NCBI GenBank assembly: GCA_965220745.1
Contig: CBDCQT010000005.1
Span: forward strand, 1 to 64,000
Reading direction: 5' to 3'
DNA from: Alphaproteobacteria bacterium
Lineage (GTDB): Bacteria; Pseudomonadota; Alphaproteobacteria; UBA828
Length of the DNA: 64,000 nt
Position 1 is the first letter of the stretch. Each line of letters opens with the position of its first letter. The notes under the pieces were generated by a model. The model saw nothing but the letters and a program-made list of their open reading frames with translations, did not search any database and was not told where the DNA came from. Below, piece by piece: positions 46,609 through 63,146 of the stretch. Both the position numbers and the translations under genes were made by a program.

Positions 46609-48819
46609 ATGCTGCGACGCGCGTCAAAGAGGGCTGGGGACAAGGCCGACTCGGACTTCGCGAAACGAAGGGTAACCACGCCCATTCTGTTGCAGATGCA
46701 CGCATCGGAATGTGGGGCCGCCTGCCTCGGCAGCATATTGGCCTACTTCGGTCGCTGGGTGCCACTGACCGAACTTCGCGAAAAATGCGAGGTGAGCCGA
46801 GACGGCAGTAGTGCCGCGAGCATCTTGCGCGCATCCAGGCACTACGGTCTCGAGTGCAATGGCCTCAGCTTACGCGCCGAGCAACTGAAGAAGCTGGAAT
46901 TGCCTCTGATCCTGTTCTGGCAATTCAGTCATTTCGTTGTCTTCGAAGGGTTCGATGGCCGCCATTACCATCTCAATGACCCGTCCATGGGGCGGCGCAG
47001 GCTCTCCGCTGAGGAATTCGAGAAGGATTACAGCGGCATCGCGCTGAGGTTCAAGCGCGGCGCCGATTTCAGCCCCGGCGGCAGGCAGCCCAACCTGTTC
47101 AGGCAACTGAGCGCCTCGCTCGTCGACTCATGGAGCATGCTCACCGGCGTGGTCGCCTGCGGATTCATGTTGACGCTGCTGGCACTGATCGTTCCCGCGT
47201 CTCTCGGTGTGTTCGTGGACGAAGTTCTGGAAAATCACGGGAGCTGGGGCGGATTGGTGGCAGCCCTGCTGGGCGGCGGTGCGCTGGTCTACATCCTGTC
47301 CCTTCTCAGGCACCGGTTCCTAAAGCGGCTTGCCGTCCGGATTTCGGTGATCGGCTACAGCCGGAGCCTGTCGCGGCTGCTGCGATTGCCCGTGGAGTTC
47401 TTCGAGCACAGGCTGGTCGGCGACCTGACCGATCGAGTCTCGTCCGTCGACAGAATAGCGAAGAACCTGACGGACCAGTTTCTCGTGCTCATCATAGACA
47501 TGGCAATGAGCGCCGTGCTGCTCATCGCGATGTTCGCCTACGACGTCGTGCTCACGCTGATCGTGCTGTTGCTGGCGATCGTGCACGGATTGCTTGCGCA
47601 TGGTCTCAACGCGCTCCGGGCTGTTCGAAGCCAGGCGATGAGGCGCGAGCAGGGATTGCTGATCGGCGTGGGCATGCAGATGTTGAGTCATGCCGAGAAC
47701 CTGCGCATGACGGGCGCGGACGACCGCTTCTTCTCGCGCTGGAGCGGTCAACAGGCGCGCGAATTGCATGCGCGCCAGCTTTATTCCGAGCTGGGCTCCG
47801 TCAATACCGCGCTGCCGGGCCTCGTTGCCGTGCTGCGCGCAGCGGCCATCCTGGGCCTCGGGGGCAGCATGGTCATGGCCGGAGACATGACCCTGGGAAC
47901 GCTGGTCGGGTTCTATATCCTGGCAGAGATGTTTCTGGCGCCTGTCGGGCGCTTCCTGGAGTTTGCCGACAGACGCAAGGCGCTCGAAACCGACCTGCAA
48001 CGACTGGATGACATATCCAAAGCCGCACAAGATCCAGTCATCAGCCGCCGAAGTGAGGAATCGGAGTCGATCTCCACGTTCAACGGCCGGCTCCAGCTTG
48101 CAGGCCATCTCGAACTGCGAAACGTCACGTTCGGTTTCAACAAGAGCCGGCCGCCTCTGCTCAAGGACTTCAACCTCGTGCTGAAGCCGGGGCAGCGGGT
48201 TGCCATCGTCGGCCCCAGCGGTTCCGGCAAGTCGACGCTCGCGCGTCTCGTTTCGGGCATCTGTCAGCCCTGGTCGGGCGAAGTGCTGTTCGACGGCCAT
48301 CTTCGGGAGGAGATTCCGGAGGACGTGCTGCGGCGGTCCATTTCCATGGTGGATCAGGAGGTCGTGCTCTTTTCCGCGTCACTGCGGGACAACATCACAT
48401 TGTGGAACCCGGCCGTTCCGGACGAAGCCATCGTCGTCGCGACGCGGGATGCCCAGATCCACGACGAGATCCTGCTCAGGCCGCAGGGATACGCGACCCC
48501 CGTCGAGGAAGGCGGGGTGAATTTCAGCGGCGGCCAGCGGCAGCGGCTGGAAATCGCCCGTGCGCTGGTGGGCAACCCGACGGTAATCATTCTGGACGAG
48601 GCGACCAGCGCCCTCGACGCCGCGACGGAGGAACATGTCGACGACGCCTTGCGGCGCCGCGGCGTCACCTGCCTGATCGTGGCGCACCGGCTGAGCACCG
48701 TGCGGGATTGCGACGAGATCATCGTGCTCGACAAGGGCGCAGAGGTGCAGCGCGGAACGCACGACGCGCTGATCGCGGACAGGGACGGCGCGTACTACAA
48801 GCTGATCATGTCAGGCTGA
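46609..48819 (+). CDS. NHLM bacteriocin ABC transporter with C39 peptidase
   Basis: QMHASECGAACL, HFVV, NDP; GPSGSGKS, FSGGQRQ, ILDEATS, AHRL. Confidence 0.93.
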   Translation: MLRRASKRAGDKADSDFAKRRVTTPILLQMHASECGAACLGSILAYFGRWVPLTELREKCEVSRDGSSAASILRASRHYGLECNGLSLRAEQLKKLELPLILFWQFSHFVVFEGFDGRHYHLNDPSMGRRRLSAEEFEKDYSGIALRFKRGADFSPGGRQPNLFRQLSASLVDSWSMLTGVVACGFMLTLLALIVPASLGVFVDEVLENHGSWGGLVAALLGGGALVYILSLLRHRFLKRLAVRISVIGYSRSLSRLLRLPVEFFEHRLVGDLTDRVSSVDRIAKNLTDQFLVLIIDMAMSAVLLIAMFAYDVVLTLIVLLLAIVHGLLAHGLNALRAVRSQAMRREQGLLIGVGMQMLSHAENLRMTGADDRFFSRWSGQQARELHARQLYSELGSVNTALPGLVAVLRAAAILGLGGSMVMAGDMTLGTLVGFYILAEMFLAPVGRFLEFADRRKALETDLQRLDDISKAAQDPVISRRSEESESISTFNGRLQLAGHLELRNVTFGFNKSRPPLLKDFNLVLKPGQRVAIVGPSGSGKSTLARLVSGICQPWSGEVLFDGHLREEIPEDVLRRSISMVDQEVVLFSASLRDNITLWNPAVPDEAIVVATRDAQIHDEILLRPQGYATPVEEGGVNFSGGQRQRLEIARALVGNPTVIILDEATSALDAATEEHVDDALRRRGVTCLIVAHRLSTVRDCDEIIVLDKGAEVQRGTHDALIADRDGAYYKLIMSG

Positions 48820-51182
48820 TGCGGGCCGGGCCGGAACACACAGCGATCGCTGAGCTCGCCGCCCGCTCCGGTACGTCCGTGCCCTGCGCCGGCAACCTGC
48901 CGGTCAAGCTCGACGACCCGGACAGTGTCTGGTTCATCGATCGGGGCGCCGTCGATCTGTTCTACGTCGAATTCAAGGACGGGGTGGAGCAGGCAGCGCC
49001 GCAGCACCTGCTGCGCCGCGAGTCGGGCAATTTGCTGCCGGGTGTCGCGCCGGACGAGCAGGGCGACGGCAAGGACACGCGGCTCAGCCTGATCGCCAAG
49101 GGATTGCCGGGCACCCTACTGAAACGCCTGCCGGCATCCCTGCTGTCCGAGGCCCATCCGGAAGAGCTGGCGGAGCAGGTCGATACGTGGCTGGTCGCCA
49201 TCACCGACGAGCTGTCGCGTTTCGTTGGCTATCTTCCGCGCAAGACCGCGCTGGCCGAGCCCGGCCTGACTCAGACGCTGGCTCCCTGCACGCTATCCGT
49301 GAGACGCGGCGTGGTGTGGATGTCCGAGCCGTCGCGCGGCGCGAGCCTGTTCATGGACATGATCGATCAGGCGGAATTTGCCGGGGTGGGCGGCGCACAC
49401 GAAGCTGCAATACCGCTGACGCGGACGAGTTGGCTCACCCTGCTGGACGAGGCGACGGTATCGGGCAAATCGACCGAGACACTGGTGCGGCAAGGCCTGC
49501 TGCTGCCGACGCTTGCCTCCTTTCACTCGGTCGCCTTCGCCCTGGAACGCCTCAACCGCCGACTGGCCGTGGTCGATGACGCGAATCTCGAGCGCGCCCG
49601 GGTGGCCAGCCGCCGCACGGCCGAAAAATCTGCCCGACAGCGACTCTTCAATATCTATGACCTGCCGACTGACCGGGATGCCGATGTCGAGGACACGGCT
49701 CTGGCGGATGCCCTGAAGATCATCGGCCGCCACCGGGGCATCGATTTCAGGATTCCGGTTCGCTCGGGGCCTTCCGAGCCTCCGGTCAGCCTCGTCGACA
49801 TTCTCAATGCGTCCGGCGTGCGCGCCCGGCGCGTGAGATTCAAGGACGCGGGCAAATGGTGGCACGGCGACAGCAACGCCATGCTGGCATTCCGCGCCGA
49901 GGACGGCCAGCCCGTCGCGCTGCTACCGGGAACGTTCGGGCGCTACCGGGAAATCGACCCGGTCAGCGGGCGCAGCGTGCGGGTCACGGCGGAGCGCGCC
50001 GGCGCGCTGGAGAACGAAGCCTGGATGTTCTATCGCCCCCTGCCGTCGGGGCGCGTGAAGCCGAGCGACCTGCTGCGGCTCGCCCTGCAAGGCTCGGGCC
50101 CGGACCTCGCGCGGCTGGTGCTTGCCGGGCTTCCGGGGGGTCTCATCAAGTTGCTGCCGGCATTCGCACTCGGATTCGTCGCGAACCATATCGTGGCGGG
50201 CGGAAGCGCCGGAGCGATCTATGCCGCGGCCGCCACGCTGGCGGGGTTCGGCCTGCTTGGCGCGATGCTTCACTTGTTTCAAAGCGCGGCGATGATGCGG
50301 CTCGAGGGGCGCTCGGCGTCGCGGGTCGAAGCCGCCTTCTGGGACCGCCTCATGCGCCTTCCGCCGGCCGTTCTGCACCGCCATCCAGCCGGCGACCTGG
50401 CCATGTCGGGGATGACATTCCAGAATCTTCGCGACGGCCTGCAAGGGGTCGTCGCCGACAGCCTGCTGTCGGTCGTATTTCTGCTTCCGGTCTTCGGGGT
50501 CATGTTCTTCTACGATGCCACGCTAGGCGGCATCGCTCTCGTCTTCAGCCTGGGCTCGCTGTTGGTCACCGTCGCCATCGGGTTGCGCCAGATTTCGCCT
50601 TACGGGCGGATGATCAGTGCGGTACGCCGCGTTGCCGGCCGCCTGTTCCAGATCGTGGGCAGCATCGCCAAGCTGCGCGTGGAAAACGCGGAGGGGTCGG
50701 CGTTCGCCATCTGGGCGCGGGATTATCGCGAGCAGAAACGGGCGGAGCTCGAGCTGGGTGCGCTCGAGGGACATTCGCGGGCATTCGGCGCCGCGCTCCC
50801 CTTCCTAGCCGGCGGCGTGCTGCTTTGCGCAGTGGTCACGGTGGGCGAGCGGAACGTCCCGGTCGGCGACTTTCTCGTCGTTTACATCGTCTTCATCGCC
50901 TTCCAGGCCGCCATCGCCCGCTCGCTGATCGGCAGCCCGCGAATCATGCTGCTCGACGAGGCGACCAACTGGCTCGACAACGAAAGCCAGGCCGAGGTCA
51001 TGCAGAACCTGGCCCTCCTCACCTCCACGCGGATCGTCATCGCCCACCGGCTGTCTACGCTGCAGCAGGCCGACCGTATCTACGTGCTGCGGGCCGGACG
51101 AGTCGTGCAAAGCGGCTCGTTCAACGAACTCATGGAGGTCGACGGGGTTTTCAGGGAACTGGTCAGGAGGCAGGTCGCATGA
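48819..51182 (+). CDS. NHLM ABC transporter second subunit with internally deleted NBD
   Basis: cNMP-like N-domain, TMD, then directly IARSL...LLDEAT...AHRL; no Walker A or signature. Confidence 0.82.
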   Translation: MRAGPEHTAIAELAARSGTSVPCAGNLPVKLDDPDSVWFIDRGAVDLFYVEFKDGVEQAAPQHLLRRESGNLLPGVAPDEQGDGKDTRLSLIAKGLPGTLLKRLPASLLSEAHPEELAEQVDTWLVAITDELSRFVGYLPRKTALAEPGLTQTLAPCTLSVRRGVVWMSEPSRGASLFMDMIDQAEFAGVGGAHEAAIPLTRTSWLTLLDEATVSGKSTETLVRQGLLLPTLASFHSVAFALERLNRRLAVVDDANLERARVASRRTAEKSARQRLFNIYDLPTDRDADVEDTALADALKIIGRHRGIDFRIPVRSGPSEPPVSLVDILNASGVRARRVRFKDAGKWWHGDSNAMLAFRAEDGQPVALLPGTFGRYREIDPVSGRSVRVTAERAGALENEAWMFYRPLPSGRVKPSDLLRLALQGSGPDLARLVLAGLPGGLIKLLPAFALGFVANHIVAGGSAGAIYAAAATLAGFGLLGAMLHLFQSAAMMRLEGRSASRVEAAFWDRLMRLPPAVLHRHPAGDLAMSGMTFQNLRDGLQGVVADSLLSVVFLLPVFGVMFFYDATLGGIALVFSLGSLLVTVAIGLRQISPYGRMISAVRRVAGRLFQIVGSIAKLRVENAEGSAFAIWARDYREQKRAELELGALEGHSRAFGAALPFLAGGVLLCAVVTVGERNVPVGDFLVVYIVFIAFQAAIARSLIGSPRIMLLDEATNWLDNESQAEVMQNLALLTSTRIVIAHRLSTLQQADRIYVLRAGRVVQSGSFNELMEVDGVFRELVRRQVA

Positions 51183-51263
51183 TCCGAGCAGTCAGACCGG
51201 GTCGGATTGCTCTCGGCGTAGCGCGCGCCCCGGGCGGCGTCCGCAACTAGGGGCCCCGGTCCC

Positions 51264-53648
51264 GTGGACACGCGCGACATGGCAAGGGAGCCGTTCGCAA
51301 CGCGGTTTGCGAAGCGGGTGCTAGGCGCCCGCTGGATCGTCATCGTGGCGTCGGTGCTGGTAGTTGCGCTCGCGGCGATGGGCGTTACGCAGCTCGAGTT
51401 CTCCGCCAACTACCGGATCTTCTTCGACGAGGACAATCCGCAGCTTCTGGGGCTGGAAGCGCTGGAGAACACCTATGGGAAGAACGAGAACGTCGTCTTT
51501 CTGATCGTTCCCGACGATGGCGACGCCACGTCCGAAGACGCGCTCACGGCCGCCGCCTGGCTCACCAAGGCCGCCTGGAACACGCCGTTTTCGCGGCGCG
51601 TCGATTCGCTCGCCAATTTTCAGTACACGACCGCCGACGGCGACGATCTGTACGTGCGGGACCTGGTCGATCTGCAGGAGCTGTCGGACGCCGAGGCGCG
51701 CGCGCGAATCCGCGACATCGCCCTGTCCGACCCGCGTATCGCCGGCAGCATTCTGGGTCTGAACGGCGATGTCAGCGTCGTCAACGTCACCGTCGAGCTG
51801 CCGGAAGACGGCCTGCTGGAGGCTGTGGCCGAGGTTGCCGAATTCGCCAGATCGCTTGCTGCGGAGGCAGAAGAACGATTTCCCGGCATGGACCTCCGCG
51901 TCGTCGGCACGGCCATGGTCAACCAGACGTTCCTGGAAGCCTCGGTCAGCAGCCAGATGATGTTTCTGCCGGCGAGCCTGCTGCTCATGGCCGTGATCCT
52001 TGGCATCCTCACTCGCAGCTGGACGGGCGTTGTGGGAACCGGGATCGTCATCGTCTTTTCCATTCTCGTCTCGGTCGGCTTGGGCGTATGGCTCGGTCTG
52101 CCCTTTTCTCCGCCCGTAACCCCGGCGCCGACCATCGTGCTGATGATCGTCGTGGCGAACTGCGTGCACCTGCTGGTGGCCTTGCAGCAGCGTCTTCGCG
52201 CCGGGGATTCCAAGCGCGATGCCATTGTCGAAGCCGTGAGGCTCAACCTGCATCCGGTGTTCCTGGCGAGCCTCACGACGACGCTCGGATTCCTGAGCAT
52301 GAACTTTTCCGAAGTGCCGCCCTACCGCGATCTCGGCAACTTCGTGGCTATCGGCATCGCGGCCTCCTTCATTCTCTCCGTTACGTTCATGCCGGCCGTG
52401 CTCTCGCTTCTCCCGCTGCGTGCGCCGAAGGACCGCCGGCTTCTGCCGGCCCTGCTCTCGCTTCTTCCGTTTCCTGCCGCGAAGGAGCGCCGGCTCCGCC
52501 TGCCGCACACGAACGTCCTGGCGGACTCCGTGCTCCGCCACAGGAAGGCGCTGTTCCTGGGGTGGGTGGTGTTCGTGCTGGCAATGGCTGCGGCCATTCC
52601 GCGCAACGAGCTCAACGATGTCCTGGTTCATTTCTTCGACAAAGGCGTCGAGTTTCGCCAGGACACCGATTTCATGGACGAGCACCTGAGCGGCAATACC
52701 CTGCTCGAATACTCGCTGGAAGCGCATGCCGAGGGCGGCGCGACCGATCCGCTTTTCCTCGCCGACGTCTCGAATTTCGCCGAGTGGTACCGTGCGCAGG
52801 CGCCGGTCCGTGACGTGGCGGTCATCACCGATACCTTCCGGCAGCTCAACAAGAGCATGCACGGCGACGACCCGGCGGCCTACCGGCTTCCGGAAAGCCA
52901 GGAGCTGGTGGCGCAATACCTGCTGCTTTACGAGCTTTCGCTTCCGCAGGGTCTGGACGTGAACAACCAGATCGACAGATCCAGGTCCGCCACGCGCGTG
53001 TCGGTGTCGGCGGAGACGCTATCGTCGCAAGAGGTGCTCGACCTGAACGCGCACGCCGAGGCGTGGCTAAAGGAAAACGCGCCGCATGTCGCCAGCGTCA
53101 ACAGCACCGGCCCCGCGGCGCTGTTCGCCTACATCGGGCAGCGCAACATCCGCGCCATGTTGATCGGGACGATGGTGGTGCTCCTGGCCATTTCCGCCAT
53201 TCTCCTCTTCGCCTTCCGATCGCTCCGGCTGGGCCTGATCAGCATCGTTCCCAATCTGGTTCCCGCCGCGCTGGGCTTCGGCGTCTGGGGATTGGCGGTC
53301 GGGCAGGTGGGACTCTCGCTCTCCGTCGTGGTGGCCATGACCGTAGGCATTGTCGTGGACGATACGGTGCACTTTCTCAGCAAGTACCGACGCGCGCGGC
53401 AGGAATTGGGCCAGAGCCCCGAAGAAGCGGTGCGTTACGCCTATGACACGGCCGGCCGGGCCGTGTTCACGACGACGATCGTGCTGGTGGCCGGTTTCCT
53501 GATATTCGCGGTCTCTCCGTTCGTCCCCACCGCGCAGGTCGGGATCCTGACCGCGACAATCATTGCCTTTGCGTTCATCGCCGACCTGACGCTGCTGCCG
53601 GTGCTGTTGACTGCGTTGGACCGGAAATCTGCGAAGCCGCGCGCCTGA
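51264..53648 (+). CDS. MMPL/RND-family transporter
   Basis: two TM repeats, SLTTTLGF, GIVVDDTVHF. Confidence 0.9.
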   Translation: MDTRDMAREPFATRFAKRVLGARWIVIVASVLVVALAAMGVTQLEFSANYRIFFDEDNPQLLGLEALENTYGKNENVVFLIVPDDGDATSEDALTAAAWLTKAAWNTPFSRRVDSLANFQYTTADGDDLYVRDLVDLQELSDAEARARIRDIALSDPRIAGSILGLNGDVSVVNVTVELPEDGLLEAVAEVAEFARSLAAEAEERFPGMDLRVVGTAMVNQTFLEASVSSQMMFLPASLLLMAVILGILTRSWTGVVGTGIVIVFSILVSVGLGVWLGLPFSPPVTPAPTIVLMIVVANCVHLLVALQQRLRAGDSKRDAIVEAVRLNLHPVFLASLTTTLGFLSMNFSEVPPYRDLGNFVAIGIAASFILSVTFMPAVLSLLPLRAPKDRRLLPALLSLLPFPAAKERRLRLPHTNVLADSVLRHRKALFLGWVVFVLAMAAAIPRNELNDVLVHFFDKGVEFRQDTDFMDEHLSGNTLLEYSLEAHAEGGATDPLFLADVSNFAEWYRAQAPVRDVAVITDTFRQLNKSMHGDDPAAYRLPESQELVAQYLLLYELSLPQGLDVNNQIDRSRSATRVSVSAETLSSQEVLDLNAHAEAWLKENAPHVASVNSTGPAALFAYIGQRNIRAMLIGTMVVLLAISAILLFAFRSLRLGLISIVPNLVPAALGFGVWGLAVGQVGLSLSVVVAMTVGIVVDDTVHFLSKYRRARQELGQSPEEAVRYAYDTAGRAVFTTTIVLVAGFLIFAVSPFVPTAQVGILTATIIAFAFIADLTLLPVLLTALDRKSAKPRA

Positions 53649-53938: not shown

Positions 53939-54190
53939 ATGAGAAGTGGCGATGAAATGCTGCAACACATTATCCAGAAGTCCTCTCTGGATTCGGACTT
54001 CAGGCAACAGCTTCTTGCAGACCCCAAGAGTACCATCAGCGAGGAATTGGGCGTCACGATACCCGAGTCGATGACCATCAAGATCCATGAGAGCGACATG
54101 CAGACGGTGCATCTGGCGTTGCCGCCGGATCCGAACATCACCGAAGAGCAGCTCGAAGCGATCTCAGCGGGACTCTGCTGCTGCTGGTAA
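53939..54190 (+). CDS. srpE: NHLP-leader proteusin precursor, core LCCCW
   Basis: GGAGG RBS; DSDFRQQLLADPK, HLALP, LEAISAG cleavage motif, then LCCCW*. Confidence 0.93.
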   Translation: MRSGDEMLQHIIQKSSLDSDFRQQLLADPKSTISEELGVTIPESMTIKIHESDMQTVHLALPPDPNITEEQLEAISAGLCCCW

Positions 54191-54299: not shown

Positions 54300-55418
54300 T
54301 TAGGGGGAGACCGCTCCGGAAAGCACCATGAACACGTAGGCCTTCGCTTTTCGCAGCCGATCTCCAGATATGACCAGCTTTATGTGGTGAATGCCACGCA
54401 GCAACACATAACGGCCTGACTTCGCAAAGAGCATTGACGGTGTCGAAACCCAATCGGCAAGCGCTGCAAGCTTCTCCGGGACGACGATGTCCTCATGGCT
54501 CAAGGCTTCCAGGAACGGGTCCCAATCGGTCAGGCCGTCGAGCCAATAGCGCGAATCTTTGGTGTATCTCTGCTTGACGATAAGCGTGAGGCCGAGCGTC
54601 GGGCCGACACCCTCTTCGTGCACGTCAATATTCGCCCCGGCCCTGACAATGTTCGCGCGTTCCCTGAAGCGTGCGATCACGGATTCCACGGCCGAGGTCT
54701 CGCCCGGCCAGCCCGCGTCTTCGAGATAGGAACACGTTTCCCGCCCCGACTTGAATCCCATAATCGCGAGCCGGATTGCCCGTGAGCGGGACGGAAACAC
54801 GCCGAACGAATCCATGCGCGTGTCGTCCGGCTGCGCCAGGTAAGCGCGCTTGACGTTCTCCCGCGTGGCGGCGTTCGCCTCCCAGCCCAGGCAGGAAACG
54901 AGCGCGTCAACCACCGTGGCGGCATCGTCCGCCTGACCGCAGCCGCCCATGATCGGGCGCTCGCCGGGCCGCAGGAACAGCCCCGGCAGCGAACGTTCAC
55001 CGCCCTGCGCCGAGCCGATGTCGTATTCCAGCATCAGCTTGCGGCCGACGATGTCGCGCAGCGGCGAGTCTTCGGCATCCATCTGACCGAACAGCCGTGT
55101 GATTGCACCCGCGGTCTCATCCGTCTTGTCGGCGAGGGCGCGCTCCCGGAAGAACGCGGCAGGCCGGGTGCCGCTCGCGAGCGAGACGCCGAAATCCGCC
55201 TGGGGTTCGCGTTCATGCAGCGGAAGCTCGAAGCCGAAGGGAAGGGCCCCCATCGTGATGGGAAGCGTGCCGGCGCAATCGAGCACGCGCTGCCATTCCC
55301 GATCTCCCACGAGAGTCGTCGAAACCCTGTTGCGGAAGTGCCCGAGCAGATCGCCCATGGTGCCGCCCTCTTCGGCGAGACGGTCCTGAGTGAGCGTGAC
55401 TGCCTCGTCAATGTCCAT
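54300..55418 (-). CDS. uncharacterised RiPP tailoring protein, candidate ABBA-like prenyltransferase
   Basis: GFELPL...ADF, LEYD, HHIKL...KAY pattern; cotranscribed after YcaO; function is inference. Confidence 0.55.
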   Translation of the reverse strand: MDIDEAVTLTQDRLAEEGGTMGDLLGHFRNRVSTTLVGDREWQRVLDCAGTLPITMGALPFGFELPLHEREPQADFGVSLASGTRPAAFFRERALADKTDETAGAITRLFGQMDAEDSPLRDIVGRKLMLEYDIGSAQGGERSLPGLFLRPGERPIMGGCGQADDAATVVDALVSCLGWEANAATRENVKRAYLAQPDDTRMDSFGVFPSRSRAIRLAIMGFKSGRETCSYLEDAGWPGETSAVESVIARFRERANIVRAGANIDVHEEGVGPTLGLTLIVKQRYTKDSRYWLDGLTDWDPFLEALSHEDIVVPEKLAALADWVSTPSMLFAKSGRYVLLRGIHHIKLVISGDRLRKAKAYVFMVLSGAVSP

Positions 55419-55427
55419 CGTGTGTCC

Positions 55428-57746
55428 TCACGCAATCACGGGTGCGGGATTCAGGTCGGCTTCGGCGAGAGGACGCGGTTGGCGGCCCATGCCGACGGGC
55501 ACGTCGTAGAGGCGCCCCGGCGCAAATCGCGCCCAGAAGTGGCGCATGCCCGGCACGATGACCCGCGCCACGGGCATGCCGATGTCGGGCCGGGTCTGAT
55601 CCAGCACCAGGAACTCCATGCCCCTGGCTTCGACGAGCGCGCGGCACAGCTCCACATCGTCGCGCGTGTCCGTCGTCTCGATCGCCGGATAGTACGACGC
55701 CGTGCGGAGCGGCGCGTCGTCCGCCGGCGCCAGCCAGGAGCAATCGGCGAGCCGCGCGGTCTTCCACCACCGGAGTGCCAGCGGATCGTCGATCATGGGC
55801 CGGCCGTCTCCTTTGCCGGGGCGTGGCAGCCAGGTGAGGCACTGGTTCAACTCGCAGAGCGCACGGAGCGCCGCGAGCCGCGGGTCGGCGTGGGCGCCGG
55901 CGCCGTAGATGATGTCCTCGGTCCGGGCGTGCGTGCGGCGCGAGAGCGCGACGAACGCGGGAATGCCGATGTCCGACGTGACGTCGAGCAGCCAGAGCGC
56001 GCGCTCGTAGCGGGCGTATTGCTGCAGGGCGGAAGCGAGGTACGCGTCGTCGAAGCTGGCAAGATCGACCGCCGGCACCCGCAGCCGGTTGTACCACCAG
56101 ATGGCGAACGCATCGCGCTCGACCAGTTCGTAGAAGCCCTGGAGGATGGCCTCTTCCAGCGTGTTGCCCGCGGCGCAGCCGTTGGAATCGGCGATCAGGT
56201 CCGCGGGGCCGCGCTGCTCGGCCGCCATGCCGTAGAGCATCGAGGTCGGCAGGTAGCGATGCCGTTGCCGCGTGAGCGACCACACCGGCGTCCAGTCGCG
56301 CGCGGCGTCGGGGTCGAAGCGCGGAGGCACGATGTTGTACGGATGGCCCTTCGCGTTGATGCCCTTCGCGTTGTCGAGCTGAGCGTCGCTGAAGAGCTGC
56401 ACGTCGTTGGGATGGATCGCCTCGTCGCCCCCGCCGAACTCGACGAACCGCCTGCGGATGCAGATCTCGTCGCCATGACGGGCGCCCGAGTAGCGCTCGA
56501 CCGCCTCGCAAAGGGCGCTGACCTTCGACTGCTCCCGCGTGCTGCCCTTGCCCGCGCTCTTGCTGCGCAGGCTCCGCCTGAGCGAACTCAGGCTCCGGCT
56601 TCTCATGCCGAGATTGCTCCCGGCCCAGTAGACGTGCAGCCAGGGGTCGGTCTCATCGGTCGTGCGCGACAGCCAGGTCACGACCCCGCTGACCGGGCTC
56701 ACCAGGTGGCGGTACTTCGCGAGCGTGACCTCCGGCGCCACGGTGCGCGCGCCGCCGCTGTTGCGATGGGTCTTGGGGCTCGCTTTCAGAGCGAGCGGCA
56801 CCGGCGGGCGATCCGGCCGATGCAACGCGTCGTCGCTGCAGGCGAGGCACTGCGGCCGGCGCATCACGGGATGCTGCGCGCTTGCGAACGTGCCGACGTT
56901 CATCGTGATCGCGTGTTCGTGCAGGGGGGCCGCGTCGTCCAGCACCAGCCACTTGACGATCTCCGCCGCGATCAACCCGTAAAGCGCCTCCAGCACCGCG
57001 GGCTGAGCCGCGAACGGCTTGAAGGCAGCCTCCTCGCCGGCAACGCTGCGCAAGAAGCTGTGGACCTCCTGGTGGCCGCGCAGGCGGCTCGCCAGGCAGT
57101 CACAGCAGGGGCCTTGTCCGTCTGCGCGAAAGACGGGGCCGAACAGCACCTCCATGCCGCGCGGCCGCAGCAGTGTCCACGGCGCTTGCGCCTCGAGTTG
57201 GCGCCGGTTCACCTCAGCGAGGCGGGCGTCGAGATAGTCGTCGCAGACGACGACGGTGAGTGTGGGTTTGCCGGCCCCCGTGCTGACGCCGCTCTCTTGC
57301 AGATGCCGGACCAGGCGGCCGTCGTCGCCTTCGACCGCGATGCGCGATTCCGCGAGCCGCCGCTCGACCCAGCGCGGCGATGCGCCGAGCGACGACCAGT
57401 AGGCTGCCCGGCTCCGCTCCATGCCGTGATCGGCGGAGACGACGTAGCCCTTGGCGGCGAGCGCGGCAATGGTCCCAAGAACGTCCGCCGCGGCGTGGGC
57501 GCCCTCCAGTGCTGCGACGATCTCGTCCTGCGGGTGCCGGCCGTCAAGCAAGGGCAGCAGATCGCAGTGGAGCGCGTCGTGCAGCAGGGTATTGAACGAT
57601 TCCGAAACCAGCAGCGTCTGCCGCTCGCCGATGTCGCGGAACTGCAGGTGCGGGGCGAGCGCGGGACGCGTGACGGCGCCCCGGTCCGCAGGCGTCGTTC
57701 TGGTCAGTATCCCGTGCGGGGGCTGCGTGTCCGTCTGCGCTGGCAT
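55428..57746 (-). CDS. srpC: fused E1-like/YcaO TOMM cyclodehydratase
   Basis: GPVF...CCDCL, GKG...SALCEAVERYS, SNGCAAG, ELVERDA, Pro-containing C-terminus. Confidence 0.92.
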   Translation of the reverse strand: MPAQTDTQPPHGILTRTTPADRGAVTRPALAPHLQFRDIGERQTLLVSESFNTLLHDALHCDLLPLLDGRHPQDEIVAALEGAHAAADVLGTIAALAAKGYVVSADHGMERSRAAYWSSLGASPRWVERRLAESRIAVEGDDGRLVRHLQESGVSTGAGKPTLTVVVCDDYLDARLAEVNRRQLEAQAPWTLLRPRGMEVLFGPVFRADGQGPCCDCLASRLRGHQEVHSFLRSVAGEEAAFKPFAAQPAVLEALYGLIAAEIVKWLVLDDAAPLHEHAITMNVGTFASAQHPVMRRPQCLACSDDALHRPDRPPVPLALKASPKTHRNSGGARTVAPEVTLAKYRHLVSPVSGVVTWLSRTTDETDPWLHVYWAGSNLGMRSRSLSSLRRSLRSKSAGKGSTREQSKVSALCEAVERYSGARHGDEICIRRRFVEFGGGDEAIHPNDVQLFSDAQLDNAKGINAKGHPYNIVPPRFDPDAARDWTPVWSLTRQRHRYLPTSMLYGMAAEQRGPADLIADSNGCAAGNTLEEAILQGFYELVERDAFAIWWYNRLRVPAVDLASFDDAYLASALQQYARYERALWLLDVTSDIGIPAFVALSRRTHARTEDIIYGAGAHADPRLAALRALCELNQCLTWLPRPGKGDGRPMIDDPLALRWWKTARLADCSWLAPADDAPLRTASYYPAIETTDTRDDVELCRALVEARGMEFLVLDQTRPDIGMPVARVIVPGMRHFWARFAPGRLYDVPVGMGRQPRPLAEADLNPAPVIA

Positions 57747-57778
57747 TCAGGTCTTCCGCGCCGGATCGGCCGGCACCT

Positions 57779-60175
57779 TCACGCGCACGAACGAAGCGAG
57801 TCGATCCGGGCGGCTGCGCGGGATGCGGTGTCGGTGACCGCCGAGGTCAGCGCGTCGAAATCCTCGTGCCCGCACGCGCTCGCAACGAGAGACCTGACCT
57901 TGGGCCGCGCCTCAGCCGCGTCGAATCCTTCCTCGCCGATGAGGCGCGTGATGCCCTGCAAGTCCCGCCACATGGCCGCAGCCTGCGCCAGGTCCTCGGC
58001 GCCAGCGGCATCGAGCACCGCCGCAGCGCTCGGCGCCGGGTCGTCGAGGGCGGCGTCGGCATTCGTCAACTGCAGGACTCGCGCGGCACGCTCGACATCC
58101 TCCAGCCCGCCACGCATGCGGGCGTAGTTGGAGACGCCCGTTGCGGCCGGGTTTTCGCGCCGCGCACGAAGCTGGGCGATCAGGGACTCGTCCGCAGCGC
58201 ACGCGGCCAGCGCTTCGCCCCGAGCCTCGCCGAAGCGGCGGCCGATATCGGCATCGCCGCACTCGAACACGCAGCGTGCCCTGGTGAGGACGGGAATTCC
58301 GTCGGGAGAACGTTCCCGGCAATGCTCGGCCAGCTCGGACAGCGGCAGCGCAGAAAGGGCCTGCGAGCGGGGCGGAGCCGGGGAGAACAACAGACTGTCG
58401 CGCGCCAGGGCTGTCAGAGACTTTGCGAACTGCCGACACAGACGTTCATTCTCGCCGATCTTCCGGCCGTCGTGGACAAACAGCATGTCAATTGCAACGC
58501 CCGGATAAACGTCCCGGCTTGCGAGATCGCCGAGGAATACGGCAGCGATCCCGCCGTCCTGCAGCGGTCCGGCGAGGTCGACACGGTCCGCAGCCACGGC
58601 GGCCAGCGCGGCGGAAATTGATGCTTCGGCAAGATTAGAGAGCGCGGTCTTCGCCTCGGCCGGGGACAGGTTTCCGCGCACGACGTGCATGCCGATCTGG
58701 AACGCCTTGTCGTTCGACCAGTTCCGCACGATCTCGGCGGCCTCCTTCGCATCGGCCGTTGGCAACTCGGAGACCCGGTCCTTCATCTCCGGAACGCCCA
58801 TTTCGTGCGTCCAATAGAGTCGTGCGAGCCCACGCCGCGCGATCGTTTCGTATTCTTGATCCGGTCCGAATCCTTTCGGCAGGTCGAGATCGGTGAATTC
58901 CCGGTGTTGCAGGTTATCGAGGAGCTCGGAATTGCGTTCGATCCATGTGGCGAGCCGCGGGGCTGCGCCGAAGATTTCTACGATTGCCTCGAAGGCGTCA
59001 GGGCGCGCTGCGGAAAGACGACTGTCGTAGGCGCTCCAGTCATCGATCTGCGGGTAGAAATGCGCGCGCCATTGATCCACCAATGGATCCATCTTCGCGA
59101 ACCACCGCTTCGGCCGCAGAACGATATTCATCATGTCGGCGTAGGTTCCTGGCAAGACCGGGGATTCATCGGAGCCGAGGGCTTGGAGCAGGGGATAGTG
59201 GCGAGACGCTGCCGCGTGATGATCCGCATGGCGCTGCATGTTGAAGAACATCCAGTTGCTGAACTTCCAGTCGGCGCTCCACGAATGGCGCGGCAATACC
59301 TTTTCCCATCGGCCGTTCGGCAGACGGACCCGGCGAAGGCCGTAGTGCTGAAAGTAATTGCTGATCTTCATGGAAAAGACGCAGCAGAGCCCGAGGAAGG
59401 CGAAGACCGGCACCGCCCAGCCGCCGCTCATCCAGAACACCAGTCCGTACCAGCACGCGAGGGCGATGCCGTAGCGCCAGAACGGATTGCTGTAATGCCA
59501 CACGGGCAAACGGCGCCGTGCCAGGCGTTCGCCGACGACTTGCCAGGAATTGGTGAGGTTGCTTACGACTTCCCTGGGGAAATATCTCCAGAAACTTTCC
59601 CCCTTGGGCGCGGACCCAACGTCGTGTGGCGTGCCGACCTTGGCATGGTGAATATAGACATGCTCCGTGGCGTATTGCGGATAGGAGGCAGAGGCGAGGA
59701 GAAACTCCCCGAGCCGTCTTTCCCAGGTCGCGCGCCGATGAACCAGCTCGTGACCGACCACGAATACGGCCTGTGCTTCCATGGTCAACATGATCGCGAG
59801 CAGCACGTCTTCCCATAGGGCGAACTGATCCGCGACAAGGATTTGCCACATGGCGAAGATCAGCGTCGCCGGCCAGAGAAACGCCCAGATCCAGACCGGC
59901 AGATTGTGCCAGAAGAGGCGCCGCTCCGACGTTATCGCCGGGTCCATGTTGCGCCCGTCGACACCGAGCGCCCGGTCAAGCGGGCCCGAAACACCCATGA
60001 AGACGAAGGCCGGCAACAACCACCAGCTGCCATAGATCGCCGCAATAACGATCAGCGGGAATATGCCCAGTGGCAGATAATGCGGCAGGGCGTTGAGAAA
60101 CGACGGCACAATGTGCCGCGTGACGCCAGCCTTGTTCGGGGCCATGTCACCGCCAACGGCCGTGTCTTGCGGCAT
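57779..60175 (-). CDS. AlkB-like membrane di-iron hydroxylase/desaturase fused to GlnE-like nucleotidyltransferase remnant
   Basis: HELVH, EHVYIHH, NYFQHYG, HADHH; C-part LSNLAE, LGDLASRD, IDMLFV, RGGLEDVE. Confidence 0.8.
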   Translation of the reverse strand: MPQDTAVGGDMAPNKAGVTRHIVPSFLNALPHYLPLGIFPLIVIAAIYGSWWLLPAFVFMGVSGPLDRALGVDGRNMDPAITSERRLFWHNLPVWIWAFLWPATLIFAMWQILVADQFALWEDVLLAIMLTMEAQAVFVVGHELVHRRATWERRLGEFLLASASYPQYATEHVYIHHAKVGTPHDVGSAPKGESFWRYFPREVVSNLTNSWQVVGERLARRRLPVWHYSNPFWRYGIALACWYGLVFWMSGGWAVPVFAFLGLCCVFSMKISNYFQHYGLRRVRLPNGRWEKVLPRHSWSADWKFSNWMFFNMQRHADHHAAASRHYPLLQALGSDESPVLPGTYADMMNIVLRPKRWFAKMDPLVDQWRAHFYPQIDDWSAYDSRLSAARPDAFEAIVEIFGAAPRLATWIERNSELLDNLQHREFTDLDLPKGFGPDQEYETIARRGLARLYWTHEMGVPEMKDRVSELPTADAKEAAEIVRNWSNDKAFQIGMHVVRGNLSPAEAKTALSNLAEASISAALAAVAADRVDLAGPLQDGGIAAVFLGDLASRDVYPGVAIDMLFVHDGRKIGENERLCRQFAKSLTALARDSLLFSPAPPRSQALSALPLSELAEHCRERSPDGIPVLTRARCVFECGDADIGRRFGEARGEALAACAADESLIAQLRARRENPAATGVSNYARMRGGLEDVERAARVLQLTNADAALDDPAPSAAAVLDAAGAEDLAQAAAMWRDLQGITRLIGEEGFDAAEARPKVRSLVASACGHEDFDALTSAVTDTASRAAARIDSLRSCA

Positions 60176-60252
60176 GGCAGCTTCTCTAATGGATTAGAGA
60201 TAGATCGTAGTGAAATCCATGTTACCACCGAGTAACGCAGTCTGTAAATCCT

Positions 60253-61554
60253 TCAGGACTCCAATAATTCTACAAGCCGCTCCAGAGCTTCGATACAAAA
60301 GGCAGAGGTCACGGCTTCGGAGCCATGCCCAATTTGTCCTACCGCTCCCCACTTCAATGATTGGTCGCCAAACGCGAGTAGCTCCGGCCAGCTACCGTCC
60401 TCACGTTGCGTACTTGTGAACTCTTCCACCAGGCGTTTCGCGTCGAGCCTTTCAAGGTGTCCGACATTGCATAGCGCCGAGACGGCCTGAGCGGTCTTGA
60501 GGATATTACCATAGCCTCCCTCTTCGTCGCGCAAGTTCAGGATGCGCTCTGCGAGGATCGGGCGCGAGCGTTCGAGGGCGGGCGCCGCGCGGATCATGGC
60601 GCGGGCGATTGCATAACAGATCGCGGCCGTGTCGGGATACCACTTGGAGGAGCCTTCGAGTCTGTCTTCAGCAACCAATTTTTCCAGCCACCGTTGGGCA
60701 TCCCTCGTCTCGGGGCGGTCGCCGAGATAGGCGATGACGTTCGCATTGACGACGGGGTCGGCTTCGATGCGAAAGGGCGCCACGACGTCGGGTTCGCCTG
60801 CCGCCAGCACCCAGGTCGTGAACAGCCCTTTCTCGTCGCGGTTCGCCAATATCGCCGGAACGTTTCGTCCCAGAAGAATCCAGGGATGGGTCCCGATGAC
60901 AAGCGAGCAGAGTGTCGTGCTATCGAGGTCCTGAGGCAGATGGCGGTAGTAGCGCCACAGCCCCGGATACTCGATGGCATCGGCGAGATACGCCCTTGTG
61001 GCGGTGCAAATGGCCTTGGCCCGCGCGTCGCCGCAACGTTCCAGGGCAAGCACGCAGAGGCCGGAAACGAAGGCAGGTCTTTCGAAATGCCGGGGTATAT
61101 CCGGGTCGGCGATGTTGAACCGGATGCAGTGCCAGGCGCCGTTTTCGTCAATTGCGGTTTCCAGGAAATCGAGACCGCGGCGGATGCTCTCTCTGCCCGC
61201 TCTTGCAAGTGCCGCGGAGGTAGCAGCGTCCTCTCGGGTTTCCGCCTGTTCAGGGGCGGGGGGGCGACGCAGCGGCGCGGGGTCGTAGAGCGTCTTGCGA
61301 AGGAACGCGAGCGATGCTGCGCCGGTTCTTGCCGCCTCCCGTTCTTCCTCACTGAGTTTGCTGCGCGGTGGAAGCACCAGATGTATCGCGGTATCGGTTT
61401 CTTCGTGCACGTGAATCTCATGATCCTCGGCCAGAGTTATGCCGAGTTCCCTTTCGATAGTTTCCTTGGGCTTTACGAGAAGACGCGCGCGAAAATCGGC
61501 ATCTTCTCCAGCCCTTGATAGGAGGAGTGCTTCCGCGTCAATAGGTTTCCTCAC
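60253..61554 (-). CDS. NHLP-leader-like domain fused to squalene-cyclase/prenyltransferase alpha-barrel
   Basis: DADFRARLLVKPK...HLVLP N-domain; PQDLDST, DPVVNAN, QREDGSW (QW motif). Confidence 0.78.
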   Translation of the reverse strand: MRKPIDAEALLLSRAGEDADFRARLLVKPKETIERELGITLAEDHEIHVHEETDTAIHLVLPPRSKLSEEEREAARTGAASLAFLRKTLYDPAPLRRPPAPEQAETREDAATSAALARAGRESIRRGLDFLETAIDENGAWHCIRFNIADPDIPRHFERPAFVSGLCVLALERCGDARAKAICTATRAYLADAIEYPGLWRYYRHLPQDLDSTTLCSLVIGTHPWILLGRNVPAILANRDEKGLFTTWVLAAGEPDVVAPFRIEADPVVNANVIAYLGDRPETRDAQRWLEKLVAEDRLEGSSKWYPDTAAICYAIARAMIRAAPALERSRPILAERILNLRDEEGGYGNILKTAQAVSALCNVGHLERLDAKRLVEEFTSTQREDGSWPELLAFGDQSLKWGAVGQIGHGSEAVTSAFCIEALERLVELLES

Positions 61555-61964: not shown

Positions 61965-63146
61965 CTACACGTCCTCGACCTGCAATCGTTCACGACCAGT
62001 TTCCGATCGGTACACATTGTGAAAATGTTGTAGCGCCGCCTCGTTCCGCCCAAATACGACTTCCGACTGAATCCCACACTCAGCGTTTAACTGAACTTCT
62101 TCCAGCATTGCGTAGTCCTGTTTTTCGACAACATCTCTGAATCTAATCAGTCTGTCCTCATACGACATCCCTTGCTCTTCGAAGTGCTTTTGTATCTTGG
62201 GGTCGATGTACCAGGTATGAATCGTTCGAGATTTCGAAGGTGACCCTCCAAGAGGGAAGATGCGCATCAGATCGACCCCAAATGCGTCCATCATCATGAT
62301 GACGTTGGGGTAAAAGAAATAAACCGTGGATGTTATCTGCTTGTACGGCCAACGGCTTTGGATCGGCATGGACAATCGCATGAGATCGATCTTTCGGTTG
62401 GCGAATACCATGCGGAGGTTCCTTTCGAACCTGTCGAATGTCTGCACGTTCGCGTGCACTTCTTTGGCAGCCGTATCCGGGTGGAGGACGTTCAGATGAT
62501 AAATTTCACCGTAGGAATCGATGCCCAACTTCCAGTTTATCCGCGCATCGATGACTTGCTGGCCAGCATGAGGGTGATCCGATAGCTTCCAGTGAACCAG
62601 GTCGTTCTGAAGTCCAGCCAGGCACTCATCCTCGTCCAGGGGATCGCTTTGAGACGGTCGTACCCACAACGTCCCGTGCATTTCCGCCGAAGGCAGTTCG
62701 ATAAGCCGCAAACCCATACTTGAGACATTCCCGAAATGGCGCCTCTTGTTGACCGCCAACAAGCGGCCATCGATTCCGTAGGTCCATGCGTGGAAAGGAC
62801 ACGTAAAGCGAGTCCCGGAGCCGCGTCCCTCGGGCACCACCAGACTCCCGCGATGCCGACAGACGTTTGCGAACGCGCGAAATCGACCCTCACCATCCCG
62901 AACCATGAGTATTGGGGCACCGGTTGCATTGTCTGACCAATAGGTATTGGCCTTCGGCAGTTGGGACGAGAGACCCATCAGCAACGGTACGTTCCGAAAA
63001 AATGTCTCCTGCTCTTGCGCCAGGAGTTGCGGGCACGTGAATTCGGACATCGGTAGACGCATGATGCCGCCCGCATCGGCGGTCGTGCCGTTGTCGATGT
63101 GCTCGACAAGAGCCTTCAAAATGCCTTCTCGTTCAGAATGGTCCAT
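61965..63146 (-). CDS. Rieske non-heme iron oxygenase alpha subunit
   Basis: CRHRG...CPFHAW; NWK...EIYH...LH; QD. Confidence 0.9.
   Translation of the reverse strand: MDHSEREGILKALVEHIDNGTTADAGGIMRLPMSEFTCPQLLAQEQETFFRNVPLLMGLSSQLPKANTYWSDNATGAPILMVRDGEGRFRAFANVCRHRGSLVVPEGRGSGTRFTCPFHAWTYGIDGRLLAVNKRRHFGNVSSMGLRLIELPSAEMHGTLWVRPSQSDPLDEDECLAGLQNDLVHWKLSDHPHAGQQVIDARINWKLGIDSYGEIYHLNVLHPDTAAKEVHANVQTFDRFERNLRMVFANRKIDLMRLSMPIQSRWPYKQITSTVYFFYPNVIMMMDAFGVDLMRIFPLGGSPSKSRTIHTWYIDPKIQKHFEEQGMSYEDRLIRFRDVVEKQDYAMLEEVQLNAECGIQSEVVFGRNEAALQHFHNVYRSETGRERLQVEDV

Follow-up and report, generated by a model that had tools for sequence, protein, structure and literature searches.

Sponge-derived RiPP proteusin (srp) clusters (Nguyen et al., J Am Chem Soc 2021; described here after PMC10858898, PMC10286304, PMC12615548 and bioRxiv 10.1101/2023.06.09.544420) combine an NHLP-type precursor, a YcaO enzyme and a Trp halogenase, are spread over the phyla of sponge symbionts, and have the core LCCCW as their hallmark. 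In sponge microbiomes they are reported to be among the RiPP clusters with the widest distribution and the highest transcription, and the ecological role of their compounds has been called elusive. In those parts of the four sources that were accessible, the only chemistry described is cyclodehydration, with thiazoline formation, and bromination, and no function is given there for two genes that, in the cluster reported here, encode proteins of 433 and 372 aa.

According to the accessible part of a review (PMC13290415), NctPC and ChrPC (Hubrich et al., Chem 2024) are fused prenyltransferase-cyclase RiPP maturases. NctPC is composed of an ABBA P-domain and an MstE-like C-domain, by which a Trp residue is geranylgeranylated and then cyclised, and ChrPC is similar. 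An earlier note on the present DNA had pointed to a precedent for prenyltransferase-cyclase pairs acting on RiPPs, and these two enzymes provide it. In another system, the Trp at the C-terminus of an NHLP precursor is the residue that PalQ prenylates. As for terpene cyclases acting on small molecules, the active drimenol synthase AsDMS carries a DXDT acid motif; the motif is described as 'occasionally variable', and only its middle Asp is called strictly conserved.

Here we describe an srp-type cluster in a window of 64,000 nt (the whole stretch of DNA that was analysed), whose ORF coordinates are the basis for the gene order and intergenic distances given below. An LCCCW precursor, a YcaO gene and a Trp halogenase gene are present together (Table 1). 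We propose, with a probability of roughly 0.6, that two further genes of this cluster are the split halves of a prenyltransferase-cyclase maturase, and that the LCCCW core is first prenylated by one product and the attached chain then cyclised by the other.

Table 1. Genes of the srp-type cluster and its surroundings; positions refer to the window.
Feature	Position	Strand	Evidence or remark
Flavin-dependent Trp halogenase (SrpI type)	42096..43370	-	PF04820, 2.1e-42
DUF1302-like gene	43469-44698	-	syntenic in many loci
LolA-like gene	44698-45696	-	syntenic in many loci
Peptidase-C39 ABC transporter (PCAT)	46609..48819	+	
Second ABC-type membrane protein gene	48402..51182	+	ABC_membrane 3.3e-11; start uncertain, overlaps end of PCAT gene
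MMPL/HAE3-type RND transporter	51264..53648	+	sub-threshold similarity to hopanoid transporter HpnN
Precursor peptide (SrpE type)	53939..54190	+	NHLP leader, ...ISAG junction, core LCCCW
Candidate peptide prenyltransferase, 372 aa	54300..55418	-	ABBA/PT-barrel fold in AF2 model
E1-like/leader-binding domain fused to YcaO cyclodehydratase (SrpC type)	55428..57746	-	YcaO 2e-95; TIGR03604 9.5e-80; TIGR03882 1.8e-36
798-aa fusion: membrane FA_desaturase-type di-iron domain (aa 121-345) + GlnE-like nucleotidyltransferase domain (aa 464-594)	57779..60175	-	
Leader-fused class II terpene cyclase candidate, 433 aa	60253..61554	-	NHLP, fold and profile matches
Rieske non-heme iron oxygenase alpha subunit	61965..63146	-	accessory; not conserved with cluster

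The precursor gene is convergent with an enzyme operon in which the genes of the 433-aa protein, the 798-aa protein, the YcaO enzyme and the 372-aa protein follow one another in the direction of transcription, with successive gaps of 77, 32 and 9 nt. Both proteins of interest thus belong to the YcaO operon, as the earlier note had stated; they are encoded by separate ORFs with two genes between them, and no single fused polypeptide is present here. From gene order only, the 433-aa, 798-aa and 372-aa proteins are probably SrpA, SrpB and SrpD, respectively. The PCAT gene, which adjoins in most of the 80 related loci, likely encodes the leader protease and exporter of the cluster, and the LolA-like and DUF1302-like proteins likely handle a lipophilic product. 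For the second ABC-type gene, the frame listed in Table 1 is the conserved one (mean identity 76% over 70 loci, vs 60% for the off-frame ORF 49856-51250). The 798-aa fusion was found in many of the related loci, and the Rieske oxygenase gene within 10 kb in 4 of the 80 only. In our assessment, the lipid-type export genes of the cluster were counted in favour of a terpenoid peptide as its product.

Co-occurrence was followed over 80 loci from many phyla, in which the cyclase gene has the LCCCW precursor and the 372-aa gene as neighbours: 69 of these loci yielded the 372-aa ORF and 68 the precursor, several loci ending at contig edges. All 68 precursor orthologs recovered terminate in SAGLCCCW. 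Both the 433-aa and the 372-aa protein are 63-90% identical across distant phyla, which implies strong purifying selection. Contigs from one RNA-library run covered 28 of 30 bins of the region, but 56 of 100 were only 90-95% alike, and contigs of this kind cannot prove transcription; two other RNA runs gave no contigs on the region.

The earlier note had read the 372-aa protein as a series of alpha/beta repeats ending in KAY. The repeats are borne out by the AF2 model (pLDDT 87.8), which contains five beta-beta-alpha-alpha repeats and has the architecture of the PT barrel, i.e. a ten-stranded antiparallel barrel made of five alpha-beta-beta-alpha repeats, while KAY (residues 359-361) is part of the final predicted strand, with 11 residues still to follow, and is not the end of the protein. 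A Foldseek search with this model returned 85 matches at E<=1e-3, and among the matches listed all are aromatic prenyltransferases; the VIA search gave MpnD with Z 17.1 over 309 aligned residues, and the best 50 entries listed are all ABBA enzymes. The ABBA fold that the note had asked structure prediction to look for was therefore found. Indole prenyltransferases rank top among the fold matches, and the Atlas lead for the protein is the Trp_DMAT cluster (0.90).

Sequence searches with the same protein were negative. Against Pfam and NCBIfam, including Trp_DMAT, PTase_Orf2 and the cyanobactin prenyltransferase family, no family was matched at E<=0.01, and a profile of the 372-aa family found 0 matches among PDB sequences at E<=10. 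A link is provided by seven proteins of 648-698 aa, whose C-domain belongs to the same cyclase family as the 433-aa protein: their N-domain aligned to the 372-aa family in hhalign with 95.5% probability (E 1.6e-8, 265 columns). One of these seven fused relatives matches Trp_DMAT (1.9e-4, below cut-off), and pairwise BLASTP of the 372-aa protein against three of them gave no match (E at least 0.4). In an alignment of 24 sequences of the family, K127, R150, R216, K282, R284, Y285, K347 and Y361 are invariant and located on or beside predicted strands, and K359 is at least 90% conserved. In ABBA prenyltransferases the diphosphate is held by Lys, Arg and Tyr side chains that line the barrel, and the invariant residues may be candidates for such a role. 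Taken together, structure prediction, fold search, profile searches and the fusion link support the assignment of the 372-aa protein as a putative ABBA-type prenyltransferase.

Class II terpene cyclases are marked by DxDD and QW motifs. The earlier note had recognized, in the main part of the 433-aa protein, an alpha-barrel with a DLDS motif and a QW motif, and both observations were confirmed. The gene opens with a GTG start 5 nt after GGAGGAG, and the AF2 model of its product (pLDDT 86.4) contains the (alpha/alpha)6 beta-domain barrel of class II cyclases. Its best Foldseek match is drimenol synthase AsDMS (4.1e-12). In the VIA search, drimenol synthase (Z 31.3, rmsd 2.3 A, 283 residues aligned) was accompanied by MstE (Z 27.5) and squalene-hopene cyclase (SHC, Z 26.2), the fold that the note had proposed to look for; class II cyclases occupy all of the first 33 entries listed, before unrelated (alpha/alpha)6 hydrolases set in at Z <=18.3. 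A profile of the cyclase family found AsDMS (1.5e-26) and SHC (5.3e-22) in the PDB.

In the profile alignment, D209 and D211 stand opposite D374 and D376 of SHC (DVDD) and opposite the D-L-D of the AsDMS DLDT, and D211 aligns with the Asp by which the wild-type and D333N entries of AsDMS are distinguished. Counts at the acid motif and in the leader region were taken by pairwise alignment of all 80 orthologs: D209-L-D211-S212 is invariant (80/80), so that a Ser replaces the fourth residue of a complete DxDD throughout, while more distant stand-alone and fused cyclase relatives carry DLDD. The note had feared that this D-to-S change might inactivate the enzyme. This concern is weakened by the activity of AsDMS with its DXDT motif, a parallel to DLDS, and the substitution need not inactivate the 433-aa protein. 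Q383-x3-G387-x-W389, the QW-type motif, is situated within the region of a weak SQHop_cyclase_C match (aa 353-392), which at E 1.7e-5 stays below cut-off; 76 of the 80 orthologs show the Q..DGSW pattern, and in a 60-sequence alignment hardly any variation is seen at the QW residues. These model-based and profile data support the 433-aa protein as a candidate class II terpene cyclase of the MstE/AsDMS-like monodomain type, preceded by a leader-like N-domain. The CCCW end of the precursor also suggested a protein-prenyltransferase beta-subunit or a LanC-like barrel; both were rejected, because class II cyclases top both fold searches and the acid motif aligns. A role of the product as hopanoid replacement was discarded as well, two SQHop_cyclase_C loci being present elsewhere in the genome.

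The same protein begins, as the note had seen, with a copy of the NHLP leader. Residues 7-74 match TIGR03793 (leader_NHLP) with E 2.1e-13 and 49.9 bits, against a cut-off of 50.9, and in a six-frame genome search the same domain reached 53.9 bits, above the cut-off; to the precursor of the cluster itself it is 41% identical over 68 residues (E 6e-18). The copy is colinear with the precursor up to the invariant G78, which falls at the cleavage-site Gly of the precursor, and leads not into a short core but into linker and enzyme domain, about 355 residues in all. S81, aligned to C81 of the precursor (the middle Cys of LCCCW), is invariant in all 80 orthologs. In place of the LxxxxL recognition motif the copy has LxxxxR, with Arg at position 72 in 79 of the 80 orthologs, and position 75 (-4) is Ala in all of them, whereas precursors have L/M at -7 and I/V at -4. 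The alpha-1 helix also has a consensus of its own. In one studied case, both LxxxxL and the alpha-1 helix were required for engagement of the YcaO enzyme by an NHLP leader. The note had let the copy, as a leader mimic, dock the cyclase on the precursor or on YcaO; R72, A75 and the distinct alpha-1 helix argue against simple mimicry of the precursor leader. On sequence grounds, the N-domain appears to be a non-cleaved paralogue of the precursor leader that has lost the LxxxxL hot spot; its role is probably that of a docking module for protein-protein contacts among the srp enzymes rather than that of a straight leader mimic at the YcaO RRE.

A pathway can be proposed on this basis. The 372-aa protein would transfer an isoprenoid chain from a housekeeping prenyl diphosphate onto the LCCCW core, most likely onto its invariant C-terminal Trp. 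The chain is likely C15 or longer, because a cyclase follows. No prenyl diphosphate synthase is present in the cluster, and the two synthases of the genome are on other contigs; donor and chain length are therefore not fixed by the cluster. Class II cyclases protonate the distal double bond of a chain and then cyclise it, and in the 433-aa protein D211 would be the proton donor. These steps would be joined by the known ones, in which the YcaO enzyme forms three thiazolines and the halogenase brominates Trp at position 6. The product would be a small peptide, highly lipophilic and with a cyclic terpene attached; the C39-ABC transporter would release it, and the RND, LolA-like and DUF1302-like proteins would handle it. 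From homology and the precedent of NctPC and ChrPC, which support it well, we infer that prenylation of the core would precede cyclisation; the product of the cluster is then probably a peptide bearing a cyclised terpene. Counted against a terpenoid peptide in the same assessment were the Ser at the fourth motif position, the distance of two genes between the two ORFs, the lack of a sequence family for the 372-aa protein, the lack of a prenyl diphosphate synthase gene in the cluster, and the accessible srp literature, in which cyclodehydration and bromination are the only modifications named.

Other explanations must be considered. The product of the ABBA protein and the cyclase might be a meroterpenoid without a peptide part, or a modified membrane isoprenoid; the two would then only travel with the srp genes and never touch the LCCCW peptide. 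The structural neighbours (MstE, drimenol synthase, DMATS/Orf2-type enzymes) do use small molecules, and the cluster includes a hopanoid-transporter-like RND gene, but the cyclase bears a paralogue of the cluster's own precursor leader and is syntenic with the precursor across phyla. Moreover, fused relatives of both domains are RiPP maturases according to the accessible part of PMC13290415, even if the fusions found here may be other enzymes. We consider this explanation distinctly unlikely. It is also quite improbable that one or both proteins are catalytically inert and act as scaffolds or as lipid- or peptide-binding modules. There are cases of inactive ABBA homologues encoded in clusters, DLDS is not a complete DxDD, and sequence-family membership was not detected for the 372-aa protein; against this stand the invariance of D209, D211 and S212, the retained QW motif, the DXDT of an active enzyme, the many charged residues that are invariant in the 372-aa family and fall on predicted strands, and the conservation of both proteins across distant phyla.

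The leader copy suggests two further alternatives. It could be an export and cleavage signal, the C39-ABC transporter cutting after G78 and the barrel working in the periplasm on an exported lipopeptide. Colinearity with the precursor up to a Gly at the cleavage-site position would fit, as would the neighbouring PCAT gene and the fact that class II cyclases have no cofactor requirement. Yet the residues at -7 and -4 differ from those of the precursor, recognition by C39 domains is placed on the LxxxxL motif in the papers cited for it, and the cargo would be a folded barrel of some 355 aa, so that we give this explanation little credence, about as little as the inert one. Far less probable still is that the 433-aa protein is itself a leader-bearing substrate whose Ser81 is modified by the YcaO enzyme: the invariance of this residue, and its alignment with a Cys of the precursor core, speak for it, but the LxxxxL region and alpha-1 helix differ from those of the precursor, and a Cys-rich core is lacking.

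Returning to the prenyltransferase-cyclase reading, it leads one to expect, from two conserved srp genes, a lipophilic terpenoid peptide and defined mass shifts, and under it the missing chemistry of the srp cluster becomes directly testable. If true, a tailoring enzyme that naturally bears the structured leader of its substrate in a diverged form would add a new case of NHLP leaders organizing RiPP enzymes. Engineered leader-enzyme fusions exist, and a leader-bearing cyclase would be their natural counterpart. A more speculative extension, which we regard as unlikely, takes the N-domain as a domesticated, non-cleavable leader that makes the cyclase a natural 'leader-in-cis' enzyme, and the product not as a secreted antibiotic but as an outer-membrane lipid of the symbiont, in which a polycyclic terpene is annelated to a brominated tris-thiazoline peptide. 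The leader copy might then pre-activate the cyclase or assemble it with other leader-binding srp enzymes, or might pair with the folded leader of the precursor, and the cyclase could thereby act on a five-residue core otherwise too short to reach; the HpnN-like RND, LolA-like and DUF1302-like genes would place the product in the outer membrane.

Compared with the published srp clusters, as far as the accessible parts of the sources go, the cluster of the window has the same LCCCW precursor, YcaO enzyme, Trp halogenase and multi-phylum spread, and does not differ. The 372-aa protein shares the PT barrel of five alpha-beta-beta-alpha repeats with indole (DMATS-type) and Orf2/CloQ-type ABBA prenyltransferases, but is only 6-14% identical to them and has no Pfam, NCBIfam or PDB sequence match. 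Likewise, the class II domain of AsDMS and MstE are the best structural and profile matches of the 433-aa protein, with the catalytic middle Asp aligned and, in AsDMS, a DXDT resembling DLDS; identity is only 18-19%, however, those enzymes take FPP or prenylated benzoates and not peptides, and AsDMS bears a HAD phosphatase domain where the 433-aa protein has its leader-like domain. With the PalQ/PalX system the NHLP-type precursor is in common, and there too it is the C-terminal Trp that is prenylated, but that system involves no cyclase, and the fold of PalQ is trans-IDS-like instead of ABBA. The closest counterparts are NctPC and ChrPC, which, as described in the accessible part of the review, likewise associate an ABBA-type module and an MstE-like monodomain class II module with a ribosomal precursor, Trp being the acceptor in the known cases. 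In the window the two modules are separate genes and not fused, the cyclase has gained its own copy of the leader found in the precursor, and DLDS stands in place of the DLDD of stand-alone and fused relatives; the core is a tris-Cys-Trp peptide of five residues on which, as in the srp clusters, cyclodehydration and bromination would act as well.

The cluster in the window is of the known srp type. The defining features of such clusters in sponge symbionts are an LCCCW core behind an NHLP leader, a YcaO enzyme and a Trp brominase (bioRxiv 10.1101/2023.06.09.544420; same definition in PMC10858898, PMC10286304 and PMC12615548), and the accessible parts of these papers describe SrpE as the precursor, SrpC as the YcaO enzyme (three thiazolines) and SrpI as the Trp-6 brominase, and give no function for other srp proteins. 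We infer the names SrpA (433 aa), SrpB and SrpD (372 aa) from gene order alone.

Features of the cluster, with position, strand or placement, and basis of annotation
Feature	Position	Strand or placement	Basis
Rieske oxygenase	61965-63146	-	Pfam/NCBIfam
433-aa ORF	60253-61554	-	NHLP leader, sub-threshold SQHop_cyclase_C
FA_desaturase-type domain + GlnE-like nucleotidyltransferase fusion	57779-60175	-	Pfam/NCBIfam
Leader-binding domain fused to YcaO cyclodehydratase	55428-57746	-	Pfam/NCBIfam
372-aa ORF	54300-55418	-	no Pfam/NCBIfam match
NHLP precursor, 83 aa	53939-54190	+	genome-wide NHLP model search
Trp halogenase	42096-43370	upstream	
DUF1302-like gene + LolA-like gene		upstream	
C39-peptidase ABC transporter (PCAT)		upstream	
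Second ABC-type gene		upstream	
MMPL/HAE3 RND transporter		upstream	HpnN-like, below cut-off

The five minus-strand ORFs form a tight array, with gaps of 77, 32 and 9 nt among the last four; the 433-aa and 372-aa genes lie in it with the YcaO gene, a grouping that the earlier note called the YcaO operon. The precursor gene, ending in EAISAG-LCCCW, is convergent with the array. The desaturase/GlnE-like fusion (798 aa; the desaturase-type part is a membrane di-iron domain) is kept in many srp-type loci and has no obvious part in a thiazoline/bromo-Trp pathway; oxidation of an isoprenoid chain could conceivably be its job. Upstream, two long plus-strand ORFs overlap in different frames (49856-51250 and 48402-51182); only the latter has an ABC_membrane match, and its mean identity is 76%, versus 60% for the former. 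As listed, it begins about 418 nt inside the PCAT gene, a start that is provisional.

The 433-aa protein is predicted to have the class II (SHC-type) terpene cyclase fold that had been proposed for it. Its SQHop_cyclase_C match (aa 353-392) is sub-threshold. With the AlphaFold2 model (60 sequences including distant stand-alone relatives; pLDDT 86.4), Foldseek against the PDB placed the drimenol synthase AsDMS on top (4.1e-12), followed by MstE, monodomain SHC-like proteins, SsDMS, SHC, OSC and copalyl diphosphate synthases. VIA-align gave Z 31.3 for AsDMS (rmsd 2.3 A, 283 residues), 27.5 for MstE and 26.2 for SHC; class II cyclases filled the top 33 places, and unrelated (alpha/alpha)6 hydrolases came next (Z <=18.3). 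By sequence alone, the family profile also found AsDMS (1.5e-26) and SHC (5.3e-22), aligning the family D-L-D-D/S opposite SHC D374-V-D376-D377 and AsDMS D-L-D-T; the AsDMS wild-type and D333N entries differ exactly at the residue aligned to D211. In the orthologs from the 80 loci kept, D209, L210, D211 and S212 are invariant (80/80), while most stand-alone (~320 aa) and fused (~650-700 aa) relatives have DLDD. The concern that the D-to-S change inactivates the enzyme is weakened, since, in the accessible part of the AsDMS paper, the DXDD motif is "occasionally variable", only the "middle" Asp is strictly conserved, and AsDMS itself has DXDT; the change is thus no ground for expecting inactivity.

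The 372-aa protein was not recognized by the sequence models searched (Pfam, NCBIfam, PDB sequences). Its AlphaFold2 model (24 orthologs; pLDDT 87.8) shows the strand/helix order bb-aa five times over, and the listed structural matches argue for the ABBA fold that had been suggested. Foldseek returned 85 matches at E<=1e-3, aromatic prenyltransferases throughout among those listed (EpzP, 6-DMATS, NphB/Orf2, CloQ, FamD1, AmbP1/3, IptA, CymD, TleC). In VIA-align, ABBA enzymes accounted for 50 of the 50 entries among the matches listed, indole prenyltransferases ranking highest (MpnD, Z 17.1, 309 residues aligned). The ESM Atlas returned a Trp_DMAT-annotated cluster (0.90), a lead only.

An exhaustive search with the barrel domain gave 813 relatives, including proteins of 648-698 aa with the barrel as their C-terminal half. 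The 372-aa family profile matched the N-terminal domain of seven of these (95.5%, E 1.6e-8, 265 columns), one with a sub-threshold Trp_DMAT match; pairwise BLAST of the 372-aa protein against three fused relatives found no match. At the profile level, the fused proteins tie the two families together.

Relatives of the 433-aa protein number more than 1000; the top 120 share 73-100% identity with it and nearly all have its length of 433 aa. The 372-aa protein shows the same conservation pattern. Scanning a genome collection with the 433-aa protein gave 178 stretches encoding a relative; the 80 best of these (64-86% identity) were kept as loci, and their MAG labels span Alpha- and Gammaproteobacteria, Gemmatimonadota, Nitrospirota, Nitrospinota, Acidobacteriota, Binatia, Latescibacterota and Opitutales. 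A gene order seen repeatedly in them is cyclase-(desaturase fusion)-YcaO-372 aa-precursor, the 372-aa ORF being recovered in 69/80 and the precursor in 68/80. Contig ends truncate several of the loci. Every recovered precursor (68/68) ends in SAGLCCCW. A Rieske gene lies within 10 kb in only 4/80 and is therefore accessory. In the closest related locus (cyclase 86% identical), the 372-aa gene's ORF (L049:16577-17218) was recovered at only 204 aa, which may reflect a frameshift or assembly error. The cyclase and 372-aa genes need not adjoin: in a Gemmatimonadota-type arrangement (L008, L019, L026, L029, L083) the latter, only 64-65% identical, is a neighbour of the halogenase gene and precedes the cyclase by about 9 kb on its upstream side. 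Just beyond the halogenase end of the window's cluster, an rve-type integrase/transposase ORF (40547-41365, minus strand; HTH_21, rve, rve_3) fits the spread of the cluster across phyla.

The N-terminus of the cyclase is, as the earlier note stated, a copy of the NHLP leader (aa 7-74, E 2.1e-13), colinear with the precursor from helix alpha-1 through the precursor's cleavage-site Gly, where the enzymes have G78, invariant in the 80 orthologs. Ser81, opposite the middle Cys of LCCCW, is likewise invariant (80/80). The pattern I/L/M-x4-L/M with I/V next at -4 is present in each of the 68 precursors, whereas the enzymes have F/L at 67, Arg72 (79/80) and Ala75 (80/80), and the alpha-1 consensus also differs. 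In published studies, LxxxxL is relied on by the brominase and by C39 domains, and one YcaO enzyme needs it together with one face of alpha-1. Two recognition determinants are thus changed: the folded nucleus is kept, the known hot spots are not. We favour for the copy a role as a docking or assembly module for a partner other than the leader-binding part (RRE) of the YcaO enzyme, or as a cis-activator; export of the cyclase by the PCAT and self-modification are less likely.

All functional statements are based on homology and predicted structures. The ABBA protein would prenylate the core, with Trp83 as the best guess for the acceptor because the characterised relatives reviewed all target Trp and this Trp is invariant; D211 of the cyclase would then protonate the distal double bond. 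Oxidosqualene cyclases retain the central Asp only and protonate an epoxide, a precedent that makes an oxidised substrate a possibility, as a lead only. Since the cluster holds no prenyl diphosphate synthase and the genome has two elsewhere, a housekeeping diphosphate probably serves as donor. The genes for lipid-type export (HpnN-like RND, below cut-off; LolA-like; DUF1302-like) fit a lipophilic product. Elsewhere in the genome (G000) there are two SQHop_cyclase_C loci, C12:725597-726550 (444 bits) and C13:21793-22767 (184 bits, in a 1191-aa open frame). Hopanoid synthesis in this organism probably does not depend on the cluster. Paired sub-threshold NHLP-model matches in 210- and 238-aa frames (C10:210936-211292, C5:423004-423399) may be nitrile-hydratase-alpha-like proteins, not precursors.

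The literature searched, which lacked most subscription papers, contained no link of srp to terpene or prenyl chemistry. The abstract of Hubrich et al. 2024 reportedly predicts that several RiPP families, proteusins among them, carry cyclic isoprenoid units; should it name srp clusters, the terpene reading is not new. PalQ prenylates an NHLP precursor at its C-terminal Trp. The prenyltransferase-cyclase precedent acting on RiPPs that the earlier note mentioned does exist: according to the accessible part of a review (PMC13290415), NctPC joins an MstE-like cyclase to an alpha-beta-beta-alpha prenyltransferase domain that has little similarity to cyanobactin enzymes, geranylgeranylates Trp and then cyclises the chain, and ChrPC resembles it with a different prenyltransferase fold. 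The architecture of the fused relatives found here matches that review's description of NctPC.
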